This document shows positions 4,594-47,008 of a stretch of DNA of 50,826 nt, in pieces; the stretch's first letter is position 1; each line of letters begins with the position of its first letter. Both the position numbers and the translations under genes were made by a program. This stretch comes from an uncultured Candidatus Saccharibacteria bacterium (GTDB lineage Bacteria > Patescibacteriota > Minisyncoccia > UBA6257 > GWB1-50-10): positions 1 through 50,826 of the forward strand of contig CAZXDO010000006.1 in assembly GCA_964639325.1 (NCBI GenBank), read 5' to 3'. Under the pieces are notes generated by a model. The model did no database searches. It saw nothing but the letters and a program-made list of their open reading frames with translations, and was not told the DNA's origin.

Positions 4594-4642
4594 GTTATCC
4601 ACAACAACTTGGGGGTTCCCGACACCCCCAAGTTGGTTTTTT
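4594..4642. repeat. GC-hairpin / DnaA-box element, copy 2 (terminator-like)
   Basis: TTATCCACA 4595-4603. Stem CAACTTGGGGG 4605-4615, loop TTCCCGACA 4616-4624, stem CCCCCAAGTTG 4625-4635, then GTTTTTT. Confidence 0.9.
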
Positions 4643-11517: not shown

Positions 11518-11550
11518 TTTTCTCTATTGTTTTAAAAACACCTTTGTAAT

Positions 11551-11592
11551 CAACTTGGGGGTTCCCGACACCCCCAAGTTGTTGTGGATAAC
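11551..11592. repeat. GC-hairpin / DnaA-box element, copy 3 (box on the 3' side)
   Basis: Stem CAACTTGGGGG 11551-11561, loop TTCCCGACA, stem CCCCCAAGTTG 11571-11581, then T and TGTGGATAA 11583-11591. Confidence 0.9.
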
Positions 11593-11696: not shown

Positions 11697-12707
11697 ATGT
11701 TTATTAGAAGAATAGGTATTGATCTTGGAACCACCAACACTCTTGTCTTTCTTCCCGATAAAGGGATTGTTATTAACGAACCAACCGCTGTAGCTATTAA
11801 AAAACCCGAAAATATAGTTTTGGCCGTGGGAGCTGAAGCAAAAGAAATGGTTGGCCGGACCCCAGAAAATATTGTTACCTATCGCCCGCTAAAAGAGGGT
11901 GTAATTGCTGATTATTATATCACCCAAAAAATGTTGAAATACTTTATTGGGAAGAGTGTTGGATCCTTTAATTTTTTCAGGCCCGATGTGGTTATTTCCG
12001 TCCCTGCGGGTATTACCTCTACTGAATTTAGGGCAGTTATGAACGCCGCTAAAGAAGCCGGCGCCAAAAATGTTTATTTAGTCAAGGAGCCCCTTCTCGC
12101 TGCCTTGGGGGCAGGTATTCCTATTCATTCCTCTGAAGGGAATATGATTGTTAATATTGGAGGAGGCACTACTGAAGTAGCGGTTATTTCTTTAGGAGGT
12201 ATTGTTGCCTGGTCCAGCCTAAGAGTTGCCGGAAACCTTTTTGATAAATCAATCACCGAATATATTAAAAAGAAGTATAATCTTGCTATAGGTGAATCAA
12301 CCGCTGAAAATATAAAAATAAATATAGGAACAGCTCTTAACGGCAAAGACGATATGGAAATGAAAATAAGAGGAAGGGATCTTGGAACAGGTCTTCCTAG
12401 GGATTTGGTAATAAATTCCAACGAAATTGCCGGAGCTATAAATTCCCACCTTGTTAATATAGTTAACGAAGTCCAGTCAGTTTTTAATGTTACGCCCCCT
12501 GAGTTAGCTGCGGATATTATGGAGAAAGGAATTATTCTTTCCGGAGGAAGTTCTCAACTTCGCAGAATTGACGAGTTTTTTAATCGTTCTTTAGGAGTTC
12601 CGACTTATCGAGCCGAACATCCCTTCTATTGTGTTTCTAAGGGTACTGCCACGATTTTAAGCCATCTTAATGTGTACCAACGCACTCTTTTGAACAAATA
12701 CTCCTAA
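11697..12707 (+). CDS. mreB: rod shape-determining actin homologue MreB (paralogue 1)
   Basis: [13 protein letters not shown]...VINEPTAVAI...VKEPLLAALGAGIP...NIGGGTTEVAVISLGG...SGGSSQL. Confidence 0.93.
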   Translation: MFIRRIGIDLGTTNTLVFLPDKGIVINEPTAVAIKKPENIVLAVGAEAKEMVGRTPENIVTYRPLKEGVIADYYITQKMLKYFIGKSVGSFNFFRPDVVISVPAGITSTEFRAVMNAAKEAGAKNVYLVKEPLLAALGAGIPIHSSEGNMIVNIGGGTTEVAVISLGGIVAWSSLRVAGNLFDKSITEYIKKKYNLAIGESTAENIKINIGTALNGKDDMEMKIRGRDLGTGLPRDLVINSNEIAGAINSHLVNIVNEVQSVFNVTPPELAADIMEKGIILSGGSSQLRRIDEFFNRSLGVPTYRAEHPFYCVSKGTATILSHLNVYQRTLLNKYS

Positions 12708-18524: not shown

Positions 18525-19541
18525 ATGTTTAAAAAAGTTTTAGGTATAGATTTAGGAACCGAAACAACTCAAATATATTTAAAAGGAAAGGGAATTGTTA
18601 TTGATGAGCCTTCTATTGTTGCCTTTAATAATAGGACGAATAGGGTAATTGCCGTTGGGAAAAAGGCTAGAGCTATGATTTCTCGAACCCCTTCCCACAT
18701 TACAGCCATGAGTCCCATAGCAAACGGAGTTATTGCTGATTTTGATATGGCTAAAGAAATGGTAAGAAAGTTTCTAAAAAATAAAAATATTCCTTGGTCT
18801 TTATTTACCGATGTTGTTGTTTCTGTTCCGACTAATCTTACGGAAGTTGAAAGAAAATCTGTTATAGATCTTTTGAAGGAAACAGGCGTTAATAATGTCT
18901 ATCTTTTAGAACAACCCTTAGCTGCTGCTTTTTCTATCCGTTTAAATATTTTTGAACCCACTGCTTATCTTATTTTAGACATTGGAGCCGGAACATCTGA
19001 TATGGCAATAATTTCCATGAATGGAATTGTTGTTTCTAAACGTCTAAAAATTGCCGGTAATTTTTTTGACAACGAAATAATAAAAGGAGTAAAAGATGAA
19101 TTGAAATTAAATATAGGCAAACCAACAGCCAAAGAAATAAAATTAGCTGTTGGATCGGCAATACCTAGAAAAGAAAAATTAGAAGTTACCGTTAGGGGAA
19201 GGGATGTTTTAAGTGGATTGCCCAGGGAGGTAGATATAAAGGACACTATGGTTAGATCCAAGCTTTCTCAACCATTAAAAGAAATAGTCAGCGCTCTTAA
19301 GGATCTTATTGAAATTACCCCTCCGGAGCTTGTAGGAGATATATATCACAATGGTATTTATGTCTGCGGAGGAGGAAGTATGTTAAGGGGTGTAGAAGAT
19401 CTGCTTAAAAAAGAAATAGGTGTTGATGTTCATGTTATAAATGAGCCTTTGACCTGCGTTGCACGCGGGTCCGGTGTTATTGCTGAAGAGTTTGATAAAT
19501 ATTCCCATCTTTTAACTGATGCCTCGTTAAAAGAAATTTAA
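18525..19541 (+). CDS. mreB: MreB/Mbl-like actin homologue (paralogue 2)
   Basis: LGIDLGTETTQIY...VIDEPSIVAF...LEQPLAAAF...DIGAGTSDMAIISMNG...CGGGSML. Directly precedes mreC. Confidence 0.9.
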   Translation: MFKKVLGIDLGTETTQIYLKGKGIVIDEPSIVAFNNRTNRVIAVGKKARAMISRTPSHITAMSPIANGVIADFDMAKEMVRKFLKNKNIPWSLFTDVVVSVPTNLTEVERKSVIDLLKETGVNNVYLLEQPLAAAFSIRLNIFEPTAYLILDIGAGTSDMAIISMNGIVVSKRLKIAGNFFDNEIIKGVKDELKLNIGKPTAKEIKLAVGSAIPRKEKLEVTVRGRDVLSGLPREVDIKDTMVRSKLSQPLKEIVSALKDLIEITPPELVGDIYHNGIYVCGGGSMLRGVEDLLKKEIGVDVHVINEPLTCVARGSGVIAEEFDKYSHLLTDASLKEI

Positions 19542-22732: not shown

Positions 22733-23188
22733 ATGGAAAAAACATATCTTACAAAAGAAAAATACAAGGAACTCAAAGAAAGCCTTCAACTCTTGAAAAA
22801 TGAAGAGCGCCGAAAAATAGCCAAACGCCTCAAAGAGGCTAAGGAGCTTGGTGACCTTTCTGAAAACTCTGAATACCAAGAAGCCAAAAATGATAAAATT
22901 CTTCTTGACCAAAAAATAAACAAACTTGAAGAAACTCTTCGTAATTCAGAAATTATTAAAAAATCTGATAGTAAAAAAGTACAAATTGGCTCTGAAGTTG
23001 AAATTGAAGAGGATAAAAAGAAAAAAGTTTATACTATTGTTGGGTCCAGTGAAACAGATCCTTCAAAAGGAAAAATTTCTAATGAATCACCTTTTGGAAA
23101 AAAACTTTTAGGATGTGAAGTGGGGGATAAAGTTGTTTTTGAAACTCCTAAAAATAAAAGAGTGTTCAAAATTAAAAAGATAAGTTAA
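22733..23188 (+). CDS. greA: transcription elongation factor GreA
   Basis: The ATG at 22733 gives MEKTYLTKEKYKELKESLQLL...AKELGDLSENSEYQEAK. The ORF track start at 22709 adds 8 non-conserved residues. Confidence 0.92.
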   Translation: MEKTYLTKEKYKELKESLQLLKNEERRKIAKRLKEAKELGDLSENSEYQEAKNDKILLDQKINKLEETLRNSEIIKKSDSKKVQIGSEVEIEEDKKKKVYTIVGSSETDPSKGKISNESPFGKKLLGCEVGDKVVFETPKNKRVFKIKKIS

Positions 23189-23215
23189 TCAAGGATTTTT
23201 TAATCAGCTAAATAA

Positions 23216-23240
23216 CCTGTCAGAAATATGGACTGACAGG
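23216..23240 (+). terminator. hairpin after greA (weak U-tail)
   Basis: CCTGTCAG 23216-23223 pairs with CTGACAGG 23233-23240, followed by TTC. Confidence 0.35.
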
Positions 23241-23244
23241 TTCA

Positions 23245-23510
23245 GCCCCCAGGATTTGAACTAGAATCAATTTAGCGAAAGCAATTTTGTTAATATTCAA
23301 GGCGCGAGGAGCGTGGGGTGTTAGATAACACGCGAGCGACGAGCAACGCAGAAGATAAACAAAATTGTTCCGCCCGAAGGGAAGCAAAATAATAAGCAAT
23401 TTCTTCGTTACTCCTCGTCAATGTATGCTCCGCATACACTTTCCTCGTCGTGTCTTGAAATTGCTTATTATTTTGCTTCTAAACTTAATTCTAGTTCAAA
23501 TCCTGGGGGC
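23245..23510. repeat. 266-bp element built from nested perfect inverted repeats (structured ncRNA or MITE-like element)
   Basis: Outer 23-bp IR 23245-23267 / 23488-23510. Inner 23-bp IR 23381-23403 / 23457-23479. 10-bp IR 23282-23291 / 23358-23367. Small hairpin 23423-23428 / 23432-23437. Confidence 0.85.
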
Positions 23511-23554
23511 GCTGTGTTATTATTGTTCTATAAATCTAATATATTTTAATAAAA

Positions 23555-24946
23555 ATGCTCGAAGATCTTATAAAAGACAGGCTTAAAAAACTTGAGAAAT
23601 ATGAAAAAGAGGCAAATCCTTATCCTTCTCGCATAAAAAGAGATTTGGTTATAAAGGATGTAATTACTTCTTTTGAAGATTTTAAAGAAAAAAGTAATTC
23701 TCTTTGTCTTGCCGGCCGAGTTAGAAGCTGGCGTGACCAAGGAGGGATAATTTTTTCTGATTTAGAAGATGCTACAGAAAAAATACAAATTGTTTTAAAC
23801 AAAGATAACATTGAAAATTTTGAACTTCTTCAAGAAACGGTTGATGTTGGAGATTTTCTTGAAGTGTGCGGTTTTCCCGGAGAAACAAAAAGAGGCGAAA
23901 AAAGTATTATGGCAAATTCAGCCAGAATGATCACAAAAAGTTTGCGTCCTTGGCCTTCTTCTTGGTTTGGACTTGAAGATTCTGAAGAACGGCACCGCCG
24001 GCGTTATCTCGACTTTATTTACAACAAAGAATCAAAAGAAAAGATTTTGATGCGTTCACATATAATAAGAGCCCTTCGAAAAAGTTTTGAAGAAGATAAT
24101 TTCATAGAAGTTGAAACTCCGGTTATTCAACCTCTCCCCGGTGGGGCTTTAGCAGCGCCTTTTGAAACACATTTTAACACTCTTGATTTAGATGTTTATT
24201 TAAGAATTGCCCCGGAACTTTATTTAAAACGGCTTCTTGTTGGGGGGTTTGAAAAGATATATGAAATAGGAAAAGATTTTAGAAACGAAGGTATTGACCG
24301 AGATCATTACCCTGAATTCACCATGCTTGAATTATATTGGGCTTACCAAAACTATGAAGGCCTTATGGACTCTTTAGAAAAGTGGTTGAAAGATTTAATT
24401 AAAGATATTGGAATAGAGAAAGTTGTTTTTGAGGATAAAGAAATAAGCCTTACCGGTAATTGGCCTAGGATAAAATACGCTGAAATTATTGAAAAATATA
24501 GCCCTGAAGACAAAGATAAAATTCATACACCTGAAATTGATGAAATCTTTAAGAAAAAAGTTCGCTCCAAAATAGAAGAACCTATTTTTATTATTGATTA
24601 CCCTAAAGTTATTTCTCCGCTTGCCAAAACCAAATCAGAAGATCCTCTTTTTACTGAAAGGTTTCAACTAATAGCCGCTAAGACCGAGCTTGTTAATGGT
24701 TTTTCTGAATTAAACAATCCATTGGACCAAAGAAAAAGAATGGAAGAGCAAGAAGAAAGGTTTAGAAAAGGAGATAAAGAAGCTTCCCGAATGGATGATG
24801 ATTTTTTGGAAGCCCTAGAGTATGGTATGCCTCCTGCTGCCGGTTTGGGAATGGGCATTGATCGTCTTGTTTCTCTTTTGTCCGGAGCTAAAAATATAAG
24901 AGAAGTAATTACCTTCACCACAATAAAGCCTAAAAATGAAAAATAA
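23555..24946 (+). CDS. lysS: lysine--tRNA ligase, class II
   Basis: OB-fold N-domain plus class II core (EVETPVIQPLPGGALAAPF, FRNEGIDRDHYPEFTMLELY, GMGIDRL). Confidence 0.93.
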   Translation: MLEDLIKDRLKKLEKYEKEANPYPSRIKRDLVIKDVITSFEDFKEKSNSLCLAGRVRSWRDQGGIIFSDLEDATEKIQIVLNKDNIENFELLQETVDVGDFLEVCGFPGETKRGEKSIMANSARMITKSLRPWPSSWFGLEDSEERHRRRYLDFIYNKESKEKILMRSHIIRALRKSFEEDNFIEVETPVIQPLPGGALAAPFETHFNTLDLDVYLRIAPELYLKRLLVGGFEKIYEIGKDFRNEGIDRDHYPEFTMLELYWAYQNYEGLMDSLEKWLKDLIKDIGIEKVVFEDKEISLTGNWPRIKYAEIIEKYSPEDKDKIHTPEIDEIFKKKVRSKIEEPIFIIDYPKVISPLAKTKSEDPLFTERFQLIAAKTELVNGFSELNNPLDQRKRMEEQEERFRKGDKEASRMDDDFLEALEYGMPPAAGLGMGIDRLVSLLSGAKNIREVITFTTIKPKNEK

Positions 24947-34765: not shown

Positions 34766-34787
34766 CAAAATATTTCAAGGAATAATT

Positions 34788-34818
34788 CAACGTGGGGGTT
34801 CCCGACACCCCCAAGTTG
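34788..34818. repeat. GC-hairpin element, copy 4 (one stem mismatch, no adjacent box)
   Basis: CAACGTGGGGG 34788-34798, loop TTCCCGACA, CCCCCAAGTTG 34808-34818. The nearest TGTGGATAA is at 35000-35008. Confidence 0.85.
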
Positions 34819-34836
34819 TCGTCGTTTTACTCCTCC

Positions 34837-34904
34837 CCAGAAACCCTCGTTTTCTGGCGCTTCGCTGTTTTCCAACACGGGGAAAATACTCTTCCCCGAC
34901 CCCC
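34837..34904 (+). repeat. GC-rich two-hairpin repeat, element B
   Basis: H1 is CCAGAAA 34837-34843 / TTTCTGG 34851-34857. GCTTCGCT lies at 34859-34866. H2 is CGGGGAA 34878-34884 / TTCCCCG 34892-34898. CCCCGACCCC lies at 34894-34903. Same layout as 44659-44720. Confidence 0.75.
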
Positions 34905-35059
34905 TTTGTCGTTTAATAGCTTGGTGGTTATTTGCTAACTAATTCCTTTGTTATGTCTTCAGGAATAATGTTGTATTGTTAGAATTTCATATTAAACATT
35001 GTGGATAACTTATTTTTCTCCCATTAAGCTTGATCTAAGTTTTTTTCATTTTTGAAAAT

Positions 35060-38291: not shown

Positions 38292-39548
38292 ATGAACAAA
38301 AAAATTATATTAGGATTTATCATATTTATTCTCCTTTCAGGAGTTGTTCTTGCGGCTAGATTGTTTGTATTTCCTTACAATCCGAACCAACCGCCCCAAG
38401 CGGATGATTCCGGTTCAACAGAAGAGGGGATAAAAAGTGTTATTGAGGCAAATAATAATTTTGCTTTTGATGCGTATAAAAAAATAATTGAATCTGAAGA
38501 GGGTAATATTTTTTACTCTCCTTACAGCATATCTTCCGCTTTGGCAATGACTTATGAAGGAGCAGAAGGAGAGACGGCTGAAGAAATTAAATCAGTTTTC
38601 CATTTTCCCAACAAAAACAGTTTAAGGCCTAATTTTGCCGCCGTTTATAACAACATCAACGCCAAAGACAAAAATTATGAATTAAGCACGGGAAACGCTC
38701 TGTGGATTCAGCATGACTTTTCTTTGTTAAATAAGTACAGCAACAATATTGAAAACTATTATGGAGGTAAAGCAGCTCTTTTGGATTTTGTAAACGAACT
38801 TGAGCAATCAAGGCAAACTATAAATAGTTTTATAGAAGAACAAACCAGGGATAAAATTAAAGATTTAATTCCAGAAGGGTTACTAAATCAAGACACAAGG
38901 CTTGTTTTAACTAACGCAATTTATTTTAAAGGATTATGGAAAGTGGAATTTGATAAATCTGATACCCGCGAAGAAAACTTTAATATTAGTCCGTCTGAAA
39001 CAATAAAAGTGCCTATGATGAAAATGAAACCTGAAGAAGAAAAGTTTAATTATGCCAGAACAGAAGAATTGGAAATATTAGAGTTATCTTATAAAGATGA
39101 AAAAATTTCAATGTTAATATTATTACCAAATGAAAGTCTTGAAGATGTGGAATCTGATTTAACATTAGAAAAAATAAATGAATATAAATCTCAGATGAGA
39201 GAAACGGAATTAAGCTCAATATCAATTCCTAAATTTGAGTTTGATACAAAATATTTTATGAATGAAACCCTAGCTTCGTTAGGAATGCCTACGGCTTTTT
39301 CAAGCAACGCCGATTTTTCCGGAATAACCGGAAGAAAAGATTTGTTTATAAGCTCTGTTATTCATCAAGCTTATATTGGAGTTGATGAAAAAGGAACGGA
39401 AGCGGCTGCGGCAACTGCCGTAGTTATGGAGCTTGCTATGGCTCCAACAAACAATTTTAAAGCTGATCATCCTTTTGTCTTCATAATTCAAGATAAGGAA
39501 ACCGGCAATATTTTGTTTATGGGTAGAGTGGTAAACCCGTCAAATTAA
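38292..39548 (+). CDS. serpin-family serine protease inhibitor, membrane-anchored or secreted
   Basis: N-terminal hydrophobic helix. FYSPYSISSALAMTYEGAEGETAEEI, LTNAIYFKGLWK, hinge/RCL GTEAAAATAVVMELAMAP, FKADHPFVFIIQD. Confidence 0.9.
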   Translation: MNKKIILGFIIFILLSGVVLAARLFVFPYNPNQPPQADDSGSTEEGIKSVIEANNNFAFDAYKKIIESEEGNIFYSPYSISSALAMTYEGAEGETAEEIKSVFHFPNKNSLRPNFAAVYNNINAKDKNYELSTGNALWIQHDFSLLNKYSNNIENYYGGKAALLDFVNELEQSRQTINSFIEEQTRDKIKDLIPEGLLNQDTRLVLTNAIYFKGLWKVEFDKSDTREENFNISPSETIKVPMMKMKPEEEKFNYARTEELEILELSYKDEKISMLILLPNESLEDVESDLTLEKINEYKSQMRETELSSISIPKFEFDTKYFMNETLASLGMPTAFSSNADFSGITGRKDLFISSVIHQAYIGVDEKGTEAAAATAVVMELAMAPTNNFKADHPFVFIIQDKETGNILFMGRVVNPSN

Positions 39549-39761: not shown

Positions 39762-39809
39762 TGGGGAGATGTGGATAATTATGTGGATATCTTTCAAATC
39801 TGTGGATAA
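39762..39809 (+). promoter_or_regulatory. array of same-orientation TGTGGATA boxes (DnaA-box-like, possible MraZ operator)
   Basis: TGGGGAGAT 39762-39770, TGTGGATAA 39770-39778, TGTGGATAT 39783-39791, TGTGGATAA 39801-39809. A further TGGGGATAA lies at 39642-39650. Confidence 0.6.
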
Positions 39810-39925
39810 CCCATTTCTAATAAAACTACCGTCTCTGTTTTTTTAAAAAAAGTCCGACCCATGCTTTTCCCTGGTTCTTAACAAAGAATCAAAAACAGAG
39901 ACGGTGGTTTCCCTAAAATAAATTT

Positions 39926-46954: not shown

Positions 46955-47008
46955 GATAACCAACTTGGGGGTGTCGGGAACCCCCAAGTTGGTGTGGATA
47001 ACTTTTTT
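46955..47008. repeat. GC-hairpin / DnaA-box element, copy 5 (loop inverted)
   Basis: GATAAC, stem CCAACTTGGGGG 46960-46971, loop TGTCGGGAA 46972-46980, stem CCCCCAAGTTGG 46981-46992, TGTGGATAA 46993-47001, then CTTTTTT. Confidence 0.9.

Follow-up and report, generated by a model that had tools for sequence, protein, structure and literature searches.

An apparently species-specific compound palindromic insertion, and its natural 115-bp deletion allele, in the greA-lysS spacer of an uncultured Patescibacteriota bacterium

Background

What is the 266-bp element that separates greA from lysS in an uncultured Patescibacteriota bacterium, and how might it have come to lie there? The element (positions 23245-23510) is non-coding, is built of long inverted repeats and occupies most of the greA-lysS spacer of contig CAZXDO010000006.1, of which a stretch of 50,826 nt, hereafter called the window, was analyzed. 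An earlier interpretation drawn from the DNA letters (hereafter the sequence-only reading) had proposed four candidates, i.e., a Y-shaped structured non-coding RNA (ncRNA), a lysS leader, a nested insertion resembling a miniature inverted-repeat transposable element (MITE), or a DNA cruciform. The comparisons reported here lead us to favor, with a probability of roughly 55%, a compound palindromic insertion that is non-coding, specific to the species and of the MITE or small-palindromic-repeat kind, and not a dedicated RNA gene or riboswitch. New here are the empty sites in all relatives examined, a corrected architecture of the element and a natural 115-bp deletion allele.

Results

The organism falls within the Parcubacteria/Paceibacterota (CPR, the candidate phyla radiation), and the comparison set comprised 24 related Parcubacteria lineages (17 distant ones with greA at the locus and the seven nearest), with LysS identities of up to 74%. 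The gene order mreB-mreC-pbp2-greA-lysS-serS was kept in all 24 lineages, and the element was missing from every one of them. Among the 17 distant relatives, greA ends within approx. 160 bp of the lysS start, mostly within approx. 10 bp. The spacers of the seven nearest lineages (LysS identities of 74, 71, 71, 68, 67, 66 and 62%) measure -1, 73, 14, 96, 99, 6 and 4 bp, respectively, and contain nothing similar to the element. Where relatives have a spacer, it consists of an ordinary hairpin plus T-run terminator followed by an AT-rich promoter region, and the non-element part of the spacer studied here (approx. 100 bp) resembles these spacers. As none of the 24 lineages carries the element while gene order is conserved, these data indicate that the element is a species-specific insertion; a look for empty sites in relatives, which the sequence-only reading had recommended, thus found the site empty throughout.

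The three inverted repeats described previously were all recovered, the third being longer than noted. The outer arms (23245-23267 / 23488-23510) show no mismatch in 23 nt and match at 93% when extended to 29 nt, the inner arms (23381-23403 / 23457-23479) likewise have 23 perfectly matching nt and enclose a loop of 53 nt, and the third pair (23282-23298 / 23351-23367) matches at 88% over 17 nt, with a 12-bp perfect helix at 23280-23291 / 23358-23369. Within the window, each 23-mer matched its own pair only, where shuffles predict 0.00-0.01 matches. The outer and inner arms had been regarded as separate repeats; their sequences stand as described, but both belong to one and the same arm. The right side of the element (23457-23510) is a single continuous arm of 54 nt, and its 53-nt left partner (23245-23275 plus 23382-23403) is split by a 106-bp module (23276-23381), hereafter module A. 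Without module A, the two arms are complementary at 52/54 positions, with one mismatch and one 1-nt indel. The element is a hairpin-type palindrome of 160 bp with a 53-nt loop and with a second module nested in its left arm. The nesting of one module within another that had been proposed earlier therefore holds, with the correction that hairpin A interrupts the left arm, rather than the inner-arm hairpin (hairpin B) lying inside an outer element. The parts of the element are as follows (rows without a sign carry no strand):

23245-23275: left arm, outer part (31 nt), the first 23 nt of which are perfectly complementary to 23488-23510
23276-23381: module A, a 106-bp imperfect hairpin with 49% GC that interrupts the left arm and whose removal restores the 52/54 arm match
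23275-23298 / 23351-23373: stem of module A (predicted helices)
23279-23287, + strand: 9-bp direct repeat AAGCAATTT, copy 1, one edge of the natural 115-bp deletion
23382-23403: left arm, inner part (22 nt, or 23 nt with G23381), perfectly complementary to 23457-23479
23394-23402, + strand: direct repeat AAGCAATTT, copy 2, the other edge of the natural 115-bp deletion
23404-23456: loop of the main hairpin (53 nt), with a central 7-bp hairpin at 23422-23438
23457-23510: right arm (54 nt, continuous), including the 16-mer GTTCAAATCCTGGGGG

Module A has a core hairpin, GTGTTA-GA-TAACAC within GCGTG...CACGC, purine-rich internal loops that contain GCGAGGAGC and GCGACGAGC, and a CCC-GAA-GGG mini-hairpin at its 3' end. 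The central hairpin of the main loop, TGTATGC-TCC-GCATACA at 23422-23438, had been reported before as GTATGC-TCC-GCATAC and proved to have 7 bp; it is flanked by pyrimidine-rich direct repeats TCCTCGTC (23412-23419 and 23442-23449), whose sequence is complementary to that of the purine-rich loops in module A. With a GC content of 42.5%, and of 49% in module A, against 33.5% in the window, the element is GC-richer than its surroundings, as had been remarked previously. Module A was not significantly similar to the remainder of the element (94/500 shuffles score equally well), and the idea that it is an inverted copy that has diverged, either from hairpin B or from the main element, was rejected for want of significant similarity.

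An exact look-up of the GreA protein identified seven same-species contigs from other samples. Three of the seven contain the full element with 100% identity, and one breaks off within the element. Two contigs from two samples (L059 and L060) carry a short form without 115 bp (23279-23393 or, equivalently, 23288-23402), the junction of which is exactly the 9-bp direct repeat AAGCAATTT; contig L057 ends precisely at this deletion junction, at position 23287. As the short form sits on two different single-nucleotide polymorphism (SNP) backgrounds, the deletion would be either recurrent or recombined. The change ran from the long to the short form, since the 13 nt lost along with module A (GAAGCAAAATAAT) are perfectly complementary to the right arm, which is retained. 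An insertion of the 115 bp with a 9-bp target-site duplication was ruled out, as an unrelated insert would not supply the complementarity of GAAGCAAAATAAT to the right arm, and an assembly artefact was ruled out by identical sequence from at least 6 samples and two assembly pipelines. The orientation of the outer and inner segments was identical in all six same-species contigs, from different samples, that show them. For the short form, a single rod was predicted (-64.8 kcal/mol, z = -10.2). These natural variants indicate that the composite is dispensable and structurally unstable.

The predicted RNA fold of the element reached -114.8 kcal/mol on the + strand (z = -9.6) and -119.4 kcal/mol on the - strand (z = -10.9), with 0/200 shuffles as good for either strand; a further prediction gave -111.2 and -117.3 kcal/mol, respectively. 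A Y shape was predicted alike for both strands, with 3 G-U pairs on the + strand vs. 4 on the - strand, and a forced rod-like alternative was approx. 8 kcal/mol costlier (-103.4 vs. -111.2 kcal/mol). Given stems of pure Watson-Crick pairs and near-equal folding of both strands, these predictions point to symmetry at the DNA level rather than to a strand-specific RNA. No other perfect inverted repeat of at least 17 nt with a loop was found in approx. 300 kb of DNA from related Parcubacteria. Neither of two options in the sequence-only reading, i.e., the Y-shaped ncRNA and the DNA cruciform, gained support from strand asymmetry, conservation or a family match.

Rfam covariance models were searched with cmscan against the whole window at the gathering threshold and against both strands of 23100-23650 at E <= 10 with permissive filters. 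For the element, these scans returned chance-level matches to snoRNA and miRNA families only. The lysine riboswitch (RF00168) had no match in 23100-23650 at E <= 10 or in the whole window at the gathering threshold, and the T-box (RF00230) had none in 23100-23650 at E <= 10. The Infernal search that had been suggested earlier, with precisely these two families as targets, thus yielded no match for the element, and the succession of lysine-riboswitch core blocks noted in it received no covariance-model support. No transfer RNA (tRNA) or tmRNA was detected in 23245-23510 by ARAGORN or by Rfam (RF00005 and RF00023), and four tRNAs were found elsewhere in the window. The likeness of the outer arm to the T-loop and acceptor end of a tRNA, which had been noted before, holds only as a shared 16-mer (GTTCAAATCCTGGGGG), as the 5' half of the T-stem is missing. 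This 16-mer has 12 matches in viral contigs, three of which lie in the T-arm/acceptor ends of genuine tRNA-Phe, tRNA-Leu and tRNA-Trp genes; the remaining 9/12 are not tRNAs and fall in unrelated genes. The open reading frames (ORFs) of the element are short, with none plausible and none with homologues, and their sole HMMER match is a tandem-repeat protein artefact. The 50 largest ORFs of the window revealed no domain of a reverse transcriptase, transposase, integrase, invertase or recombinase.

The element lies in the cluster mreB-mreC-(mreD)-pbp2-greA-lysS-serS...hrcA-grpE-dnaK-dnaJ, and the genes of the entire 50-kb window are all of the housekeeping type. Of the 366 bp of the spacer, 56 bp, with a 10-bp hairpin at 23214-23242, precede the element, 266 bp are the element itself and 44 AT-rich bp follow it, so that the lysS ATG starts 44 nt beyond the end of the element, the distance also given in the sequence-only reading. 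The features around the element are:

22709/22733-23188: greA, upstream neighbor
23214-23242, + strand: 10-bp hairpin AACCTGTCAG-N9-CTGACAGGTT, 26 nt past the greA stop; the element begins 2 nt after it
23495-23523, + strand: promoter-like site for lysS, with a -35 TTCAAA that belongs to the right arm and is separated by a 17-nt spacer from an extended -10 TGT-TATTAT in the flanking DNA
23555-24946: lysS (class II lysyl-tRNA synthetase), downstream neighbor

The hairpin at 23214-23242 is probably the stem of a former greA terminator, as a canonical terminator, a hairpin followed by a T-run, occupies the corresponding place in L027 and L034, two relatives with a spacer. The promoter-like site, predicted purely by consensus, matches 9/12 consensus positions and has a TG before the -10; its extended -10 lies 8 nt past the element. 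No promoter-like site was found inside or preceding the element, the only match being the one that overlaps its right end. Because the lysS mRNA would then start downstream of the element, the element would not be a lysS leader.

The window also contains a dispersed hairpin family, A[CT]CAACTTGGGGGT-TCCCGAC-ACCCCCAAGTTG[GT]T, that resembles repetitive extragenic palindromic (REP) sequences. Its arms have 9 matches in the window vs. 0.17 expected, and its five copies are located at:

1421-1463: REP-like copy
4595-4637: REP-like copy
11549-11591: REP-like copy
34786-34820: REP-like copy, with TGTGGATAA at 35000
46959-47001: REP-like copy

Each copy lies just 3' of a gene, usually ahead of a T-run, and is flanked on one side only by a perfect DnaA-box-like 9-mer (TTATCCACA / TGTGGATAA). 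The family is absent from the approx. 300 kb of relatives' loci and could represent a mobile terminator-like element. With five copies per 50 kb and none in relatives, it suggests a genome permissive to palindromic repeats. Downstream of tRNA-Val, approx. 180 nt of pyrimidine-rich, GC-richer DNA (34821-35000) separate a degenerate REP-like hairpin from the displaced TGTGGATAA, possibly as a result of a further insertion that split a repeat unit; this GC-rich region (34786-35008 with the hairpin) showed no notable fold (z = -1.6) and chance-level similarity to the element. Upstream of mraZ (39926), three direct TGTGGATA[AT] boxes (39770, 39782 and 39801) precede a 20-nt inverted repeat of 95% identity (39823-39842 / 39891-39910) with a 48-nt loop. 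The 9-mer of these boxes is the one that flanks the REP-like hairpins, and boxes and repeat (39770-39910) could constitute an MraZ operator or DnaA boxes.

Spacers on the other side of greA were also found to vary. In lineages L028-L033 (71% LysS identity), the pbp2-greA spacer (locus positions approx. 2075-2525) shows a cassette-like replacement of GC-rich hairpin units, with two tandem units of approx. 90 nt in L028, L031 and L033 and one different unit in L030, the flanks being conserved and LysS identical among these strains; in the same lineage, greA is immediately preceded by an inverted repeat of 15 perfect bp with a 96-nt loop. Neither module A nor hairpin B was significantly similar to the units of L028 and L030. 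These observations suggest that, in this clade, the gain and exchange of hairpin modules in the spacers around greA are recurrent events. Two features of gene content were seen in addition, i.e., a full-length serpin (38292-39548; PF00079, E = 1e-121) between argS and the mraZ-mraW-ftsI-mur cluster, serpins being uncommon in bacteria, and two full-length MreB paralogues 6 kb apart (11697-12707 and 18525-19541), of which only the second precedes mreC-(mreD)-pbp2.

Discussion

The preferred reading, i.e., a compound palindromic insertion of the MITE or small-palindromic-repeat kind, draws on several known counterparts. QMITE2 of Coxiella has terminal repeats of 23-29 bp and a folding energy near -113 (PMC10969869), and the element is likewise small, intergenic and non-coding, with terminal repeats of at least 23-29 bp and predicted folding at -111 to -117 kcal/mol. 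Its size, 266 bp or 160 bp without module A, falls within the range of MITEs (less than approx. 600 bp, non-coding, with terminal inverted repeats). As with prokaryotic MITEs, its presence varies between lineages, the site being empty in 24/24 relatives, and its repeats are nested, comparable to the small repeat elements of pneumococcus that are inserted into one another (PMC10969869). [quoted passage not shown] Of the MITE-like insertion that had been suggested earlier, the insertion itself, the terminal repeats and, in corrected form, the nesting have held, whereas no target-site duplication was seen and no extra copy was found in the collections scanned, so that the element can be regarded only as a candidate member of a mobile family or of the MITE class. 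We infer that it arrived by transposition or by another DNA-level event. Literature searches on MITEs or invertons in Patescibacteria or the CPR returned nothing relevant.

Several observations weigh against this reading. Within the 50.8-kb window, both modules occur once only. A search of IMG/VR viral contigs with five patterns gave no further copy, a 17-mer match in contig L041 being due to chance, and an 18-mer of the arm, searched in 241 million metagenome records that lack the samples of this organism, had 4 chance matches and revealed no element or tRNA. The latter scan did not return even the source contig, from which it follows that the organism's own samples lie outside the DNA-searchable collections. 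Searches of GenBank phages and PLSDB plasmids by blastn gave AT-rich chance matches only. Translated-frame searches (word-index and HMMER) found no real match and were uninformative, as one of them also missed a known partial ORF on contig L056. Multiple copies elsewhere, for which the sequence-only reading had advised a search, were hence encountered neither in the window nor in the viral contigs, metagenomes, phages and plasmids covered, a set that does not include the organism's samples. There is no target-site duplication around the 266-bp element (...GGTTCA / GCTGTG...) or around module A; except for an ambiguous self-complementary GC at the element ends, the flanks share no direct repeat of 2 bp or more. 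The perfect arms would suggest a young element, and in young MITE copies at least a duplication is expected. No transposase, recombinase or parent insertion sequence (IS) is visible in the window, and no arm 18-mer adjoining a transposase was found in the metagenome and viral collections scanned. Module A, moreover, is GC-rich (49% in a genome of 33.5%), and GC-richness in AT-rich genomes is the usual mark of structural RNA. Its purine-rich loops are complementary to the pyrimidine-rich loops of hairpin B, which could hint at an RNA tertiary contact. MITEs are typically AT-rich (PMC10969869). The element therefore differs from MITEs in its lack of a target-site duplication, in being known from one copy and in having no related IS or transposase, and from the usual MITEs also in its much longer arms (53/54 nt) and the GC-richness of module A.

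Other palindromic elements match some of these properties. Like REP sequences and bacterial interspersed mosaic elements (BIME), enterobacterial repetitive intergenic consensus (ERIC) sequences and the pneumococcal SPRITE, the element is a palindromic unit at the 3' end of a gene, where such units lie by terminator hairpins or replace them, and it shares with REP and BIME a mosaic of palindromic units for which no target-site duplication is expected. It is, however, far longer than the highly repeated REP units (160 + 106 bp, as compared to approx. 35 bp), single-copy as far as seen, and unrelated in sequence to the REP-like hairpin of this genome. Long palindromes and quasi-palindromes in E. 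coli show a classical instability through slippage deletion, and the 115-bp deletion between 9-bp repeats at the hairpin base, found on two haplotypes, resembles it; this likeness describes the behavior of the element and leaves the origin of its sequence unexplained. T- or Y-shaped ends are also known from single-stranded DNA replicons, including parvovirus inverted terminal repeats, the forked attP hairpin of CTX phage and plasmid single-strand origins. The resemblance to these would be one of topology (an outer palindrome around two smaller hairpins); unlike them, the element has no replicon, Rep gene or Xer context and lies inside a chromosomal housekeeping cluster. Judging from the arrangement of its parts, a module nested in one arm accounts better for the Y shape than an end of the replicon type.

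Under the preferred reading, the history of the locus could have been as follows. A hairpin element of approx. 160 bp (53/54-nt arms and a 53-nt loop) would have landed 2 nt past the greA hairpin and just upstream of the lysS -10, and an unrelated 106-bp GC-rich hairpin module would then have come to lie in its left arm. In natural populations, 115 bp, comprising module A and 13 nt from the inner part of the left arm, have been lost, probably through slippage or recombination between the 9-bp repeats, leaving a simple rod-shaped hairpin of 151 bp. Upon read-through from greA, the 23+23-bp perfect duplex would make a very stable 3' structure, which might halt RNA polymerase or make it pause, hold off 3' exonucleases or serve as a substrate of RNase III, as reported for Correia elements, and the right arm would supply the -35 hexamer of the putative lysS promoter. 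By analogy, the element has possibly been co-opted as a greA 3' structure and as a lysS -35 element.

Several other explanations were weighed against a compound palindromic insertion. A functional structured RNA, i.e., a Y-shaped small RNA, or a processing or insulator element in the greA 3' untranslated region (UTR) or between the cistrons, with pairing of GAGGAG- and CUCCUC-type loops, is in our estimate unlikely. The very stable predicted fold (z = -9.6 and -10.9), the GC-rich core in an AT-rich genome, the 16-nt loop-loop complementarity (13 Watson-Crick and 2 G-U pairs on the + strand) and a position between co-directional genes, where the element would be transcribed if greA is not terminated, all speak for it. 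The 100% identity across 6 contigs from different samples could be added, but is uninformative, as the flanking genes are also >99.6% identical. Set against these points are the absence of any Rfam match even at E <= 10, the absence of a homologue in any relative examined, and hence of covariation, and the absence of a promoter-like site ahead of the element; moreover, 23-bp perfect duplexes with equal folding of the strands typify DNA palindromes and not evolved RNAs, and hairpin A together with part of the hairpin B stem is deleted in variants on two haplotypes. Replication or repair errors within the spacer itself (fold-back, template switch or quasi-palindrome correction), with the 115-bp deletion as an outcome of the same instability, would fit the failure to find a target-site duplication, another copy or a transposase; templated correction yields perfect arms, and a deletion between 9-bp repeats at the base of a hairpin is classical palindrome-stimulated slippage. 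Such an origin in situ appears no more probable than a structured RNA, as no template is visible for 266 bp that are unlike relatives' spacers and the flanking DNA, module A has no sequence relationship to the main element, and both have a GC content alien to this locus. It would be a long shot to regard the element either as the first recognized representative of a family of palindromic mobile elements in Parcubacteria (CPR) that targets hairpins and leaves no duplication, or as a species-specific structured RNA whose long and short alleles set different levels of greA termination and lysS expression, with the complementary purine- and pyrimidine-rich loops of its two hairpins in specific RNA-RNA contact.

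The remaining explanations are considerably less probable. Integrases commonly use tRNA 3' ends as attachment sites, and the presence of GTTCAAATCCTGGGGG in genuine tRNA-Phe, tRNA-Leu and tRNA-Trp genes (3/12 viral-contig matches) would be compatible with a remnant of site-specific recombination, in which an arm derived from a tRNA 3' end was duplicated in inverted form by an integrative element. This is very improbable, given that attachment-site duplications are direct and not inverted, that the sequence occurs in none of the four tRNAs of the window, that no tRNA was detected in the element and the 5' half of the T-stem is missing, and that there is no integrase nearby; the 16-mer match itself is weak evidence, as 9/12 matches are not tRNAs. 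A segment of approx. 220 bp between inverted repeats of 23-29 bp, directly upstream of a gene, is the classical anatomy of invertible switches such as fimS and those of Bacteroides and Clostridioides, and an inverton flipped by a recombinase could alter greA read-through or lysS expression. We give this little credence: one orientation only was seen in the six same-species contigs, no recombinase gene was found within 50 kb, and no promoter-like site lies within the segment; the one found uses the repeat itself and is therefore independent of orientation. The interior is also nearly symmetric, so that flipping would change little, and lysS is an essential housekeeping gene. The least probable of the alternatives is a cis-regulatory lysS leader (lysine riboswitch or T-box-like) or a retron-type msr/msd RNA. 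The location upstream of lysS, short motifs in the order of the lysine riboswitch, as had been noted earlier, and an outer stem with two hairpins, as in the topology of retron ncRNA, are in its favor; nevertheless, the leader proposed in the sequence-only reading is not supported, in view of the lack of an RF00168 or T-box match at E <= 10, a best promoter-like site that puts the lysS mRNA start downstream of the element, no leader at this place in any relative examined, and a natural deletion that takes half of the structure. A retron is opposed by the neighboring genes, greA and lysS, and by the lack of a reverse transcriptase domain among the 50 largest ORFs of the window.

Conclusions

If a compound palindromic insertion is indeed the correct explanation, the biology would be fairly ordinary: streamlined Parcubacteria genomes would gain, and then erode, small palindromic insertions in housekeeping clusters. 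A new regulatory mechanism would be at hand only if transcript data reveal a defined RNA. Relatives with an empty site, contigs with the complete compound element and others with the slippage-deleted form, the latter on two haplotypes, represent the stages of gain and erosion at this locus, which would offer a clean case from nature of how unstable a palindrome can be and of how an insertion may donate a promoter or terminator.

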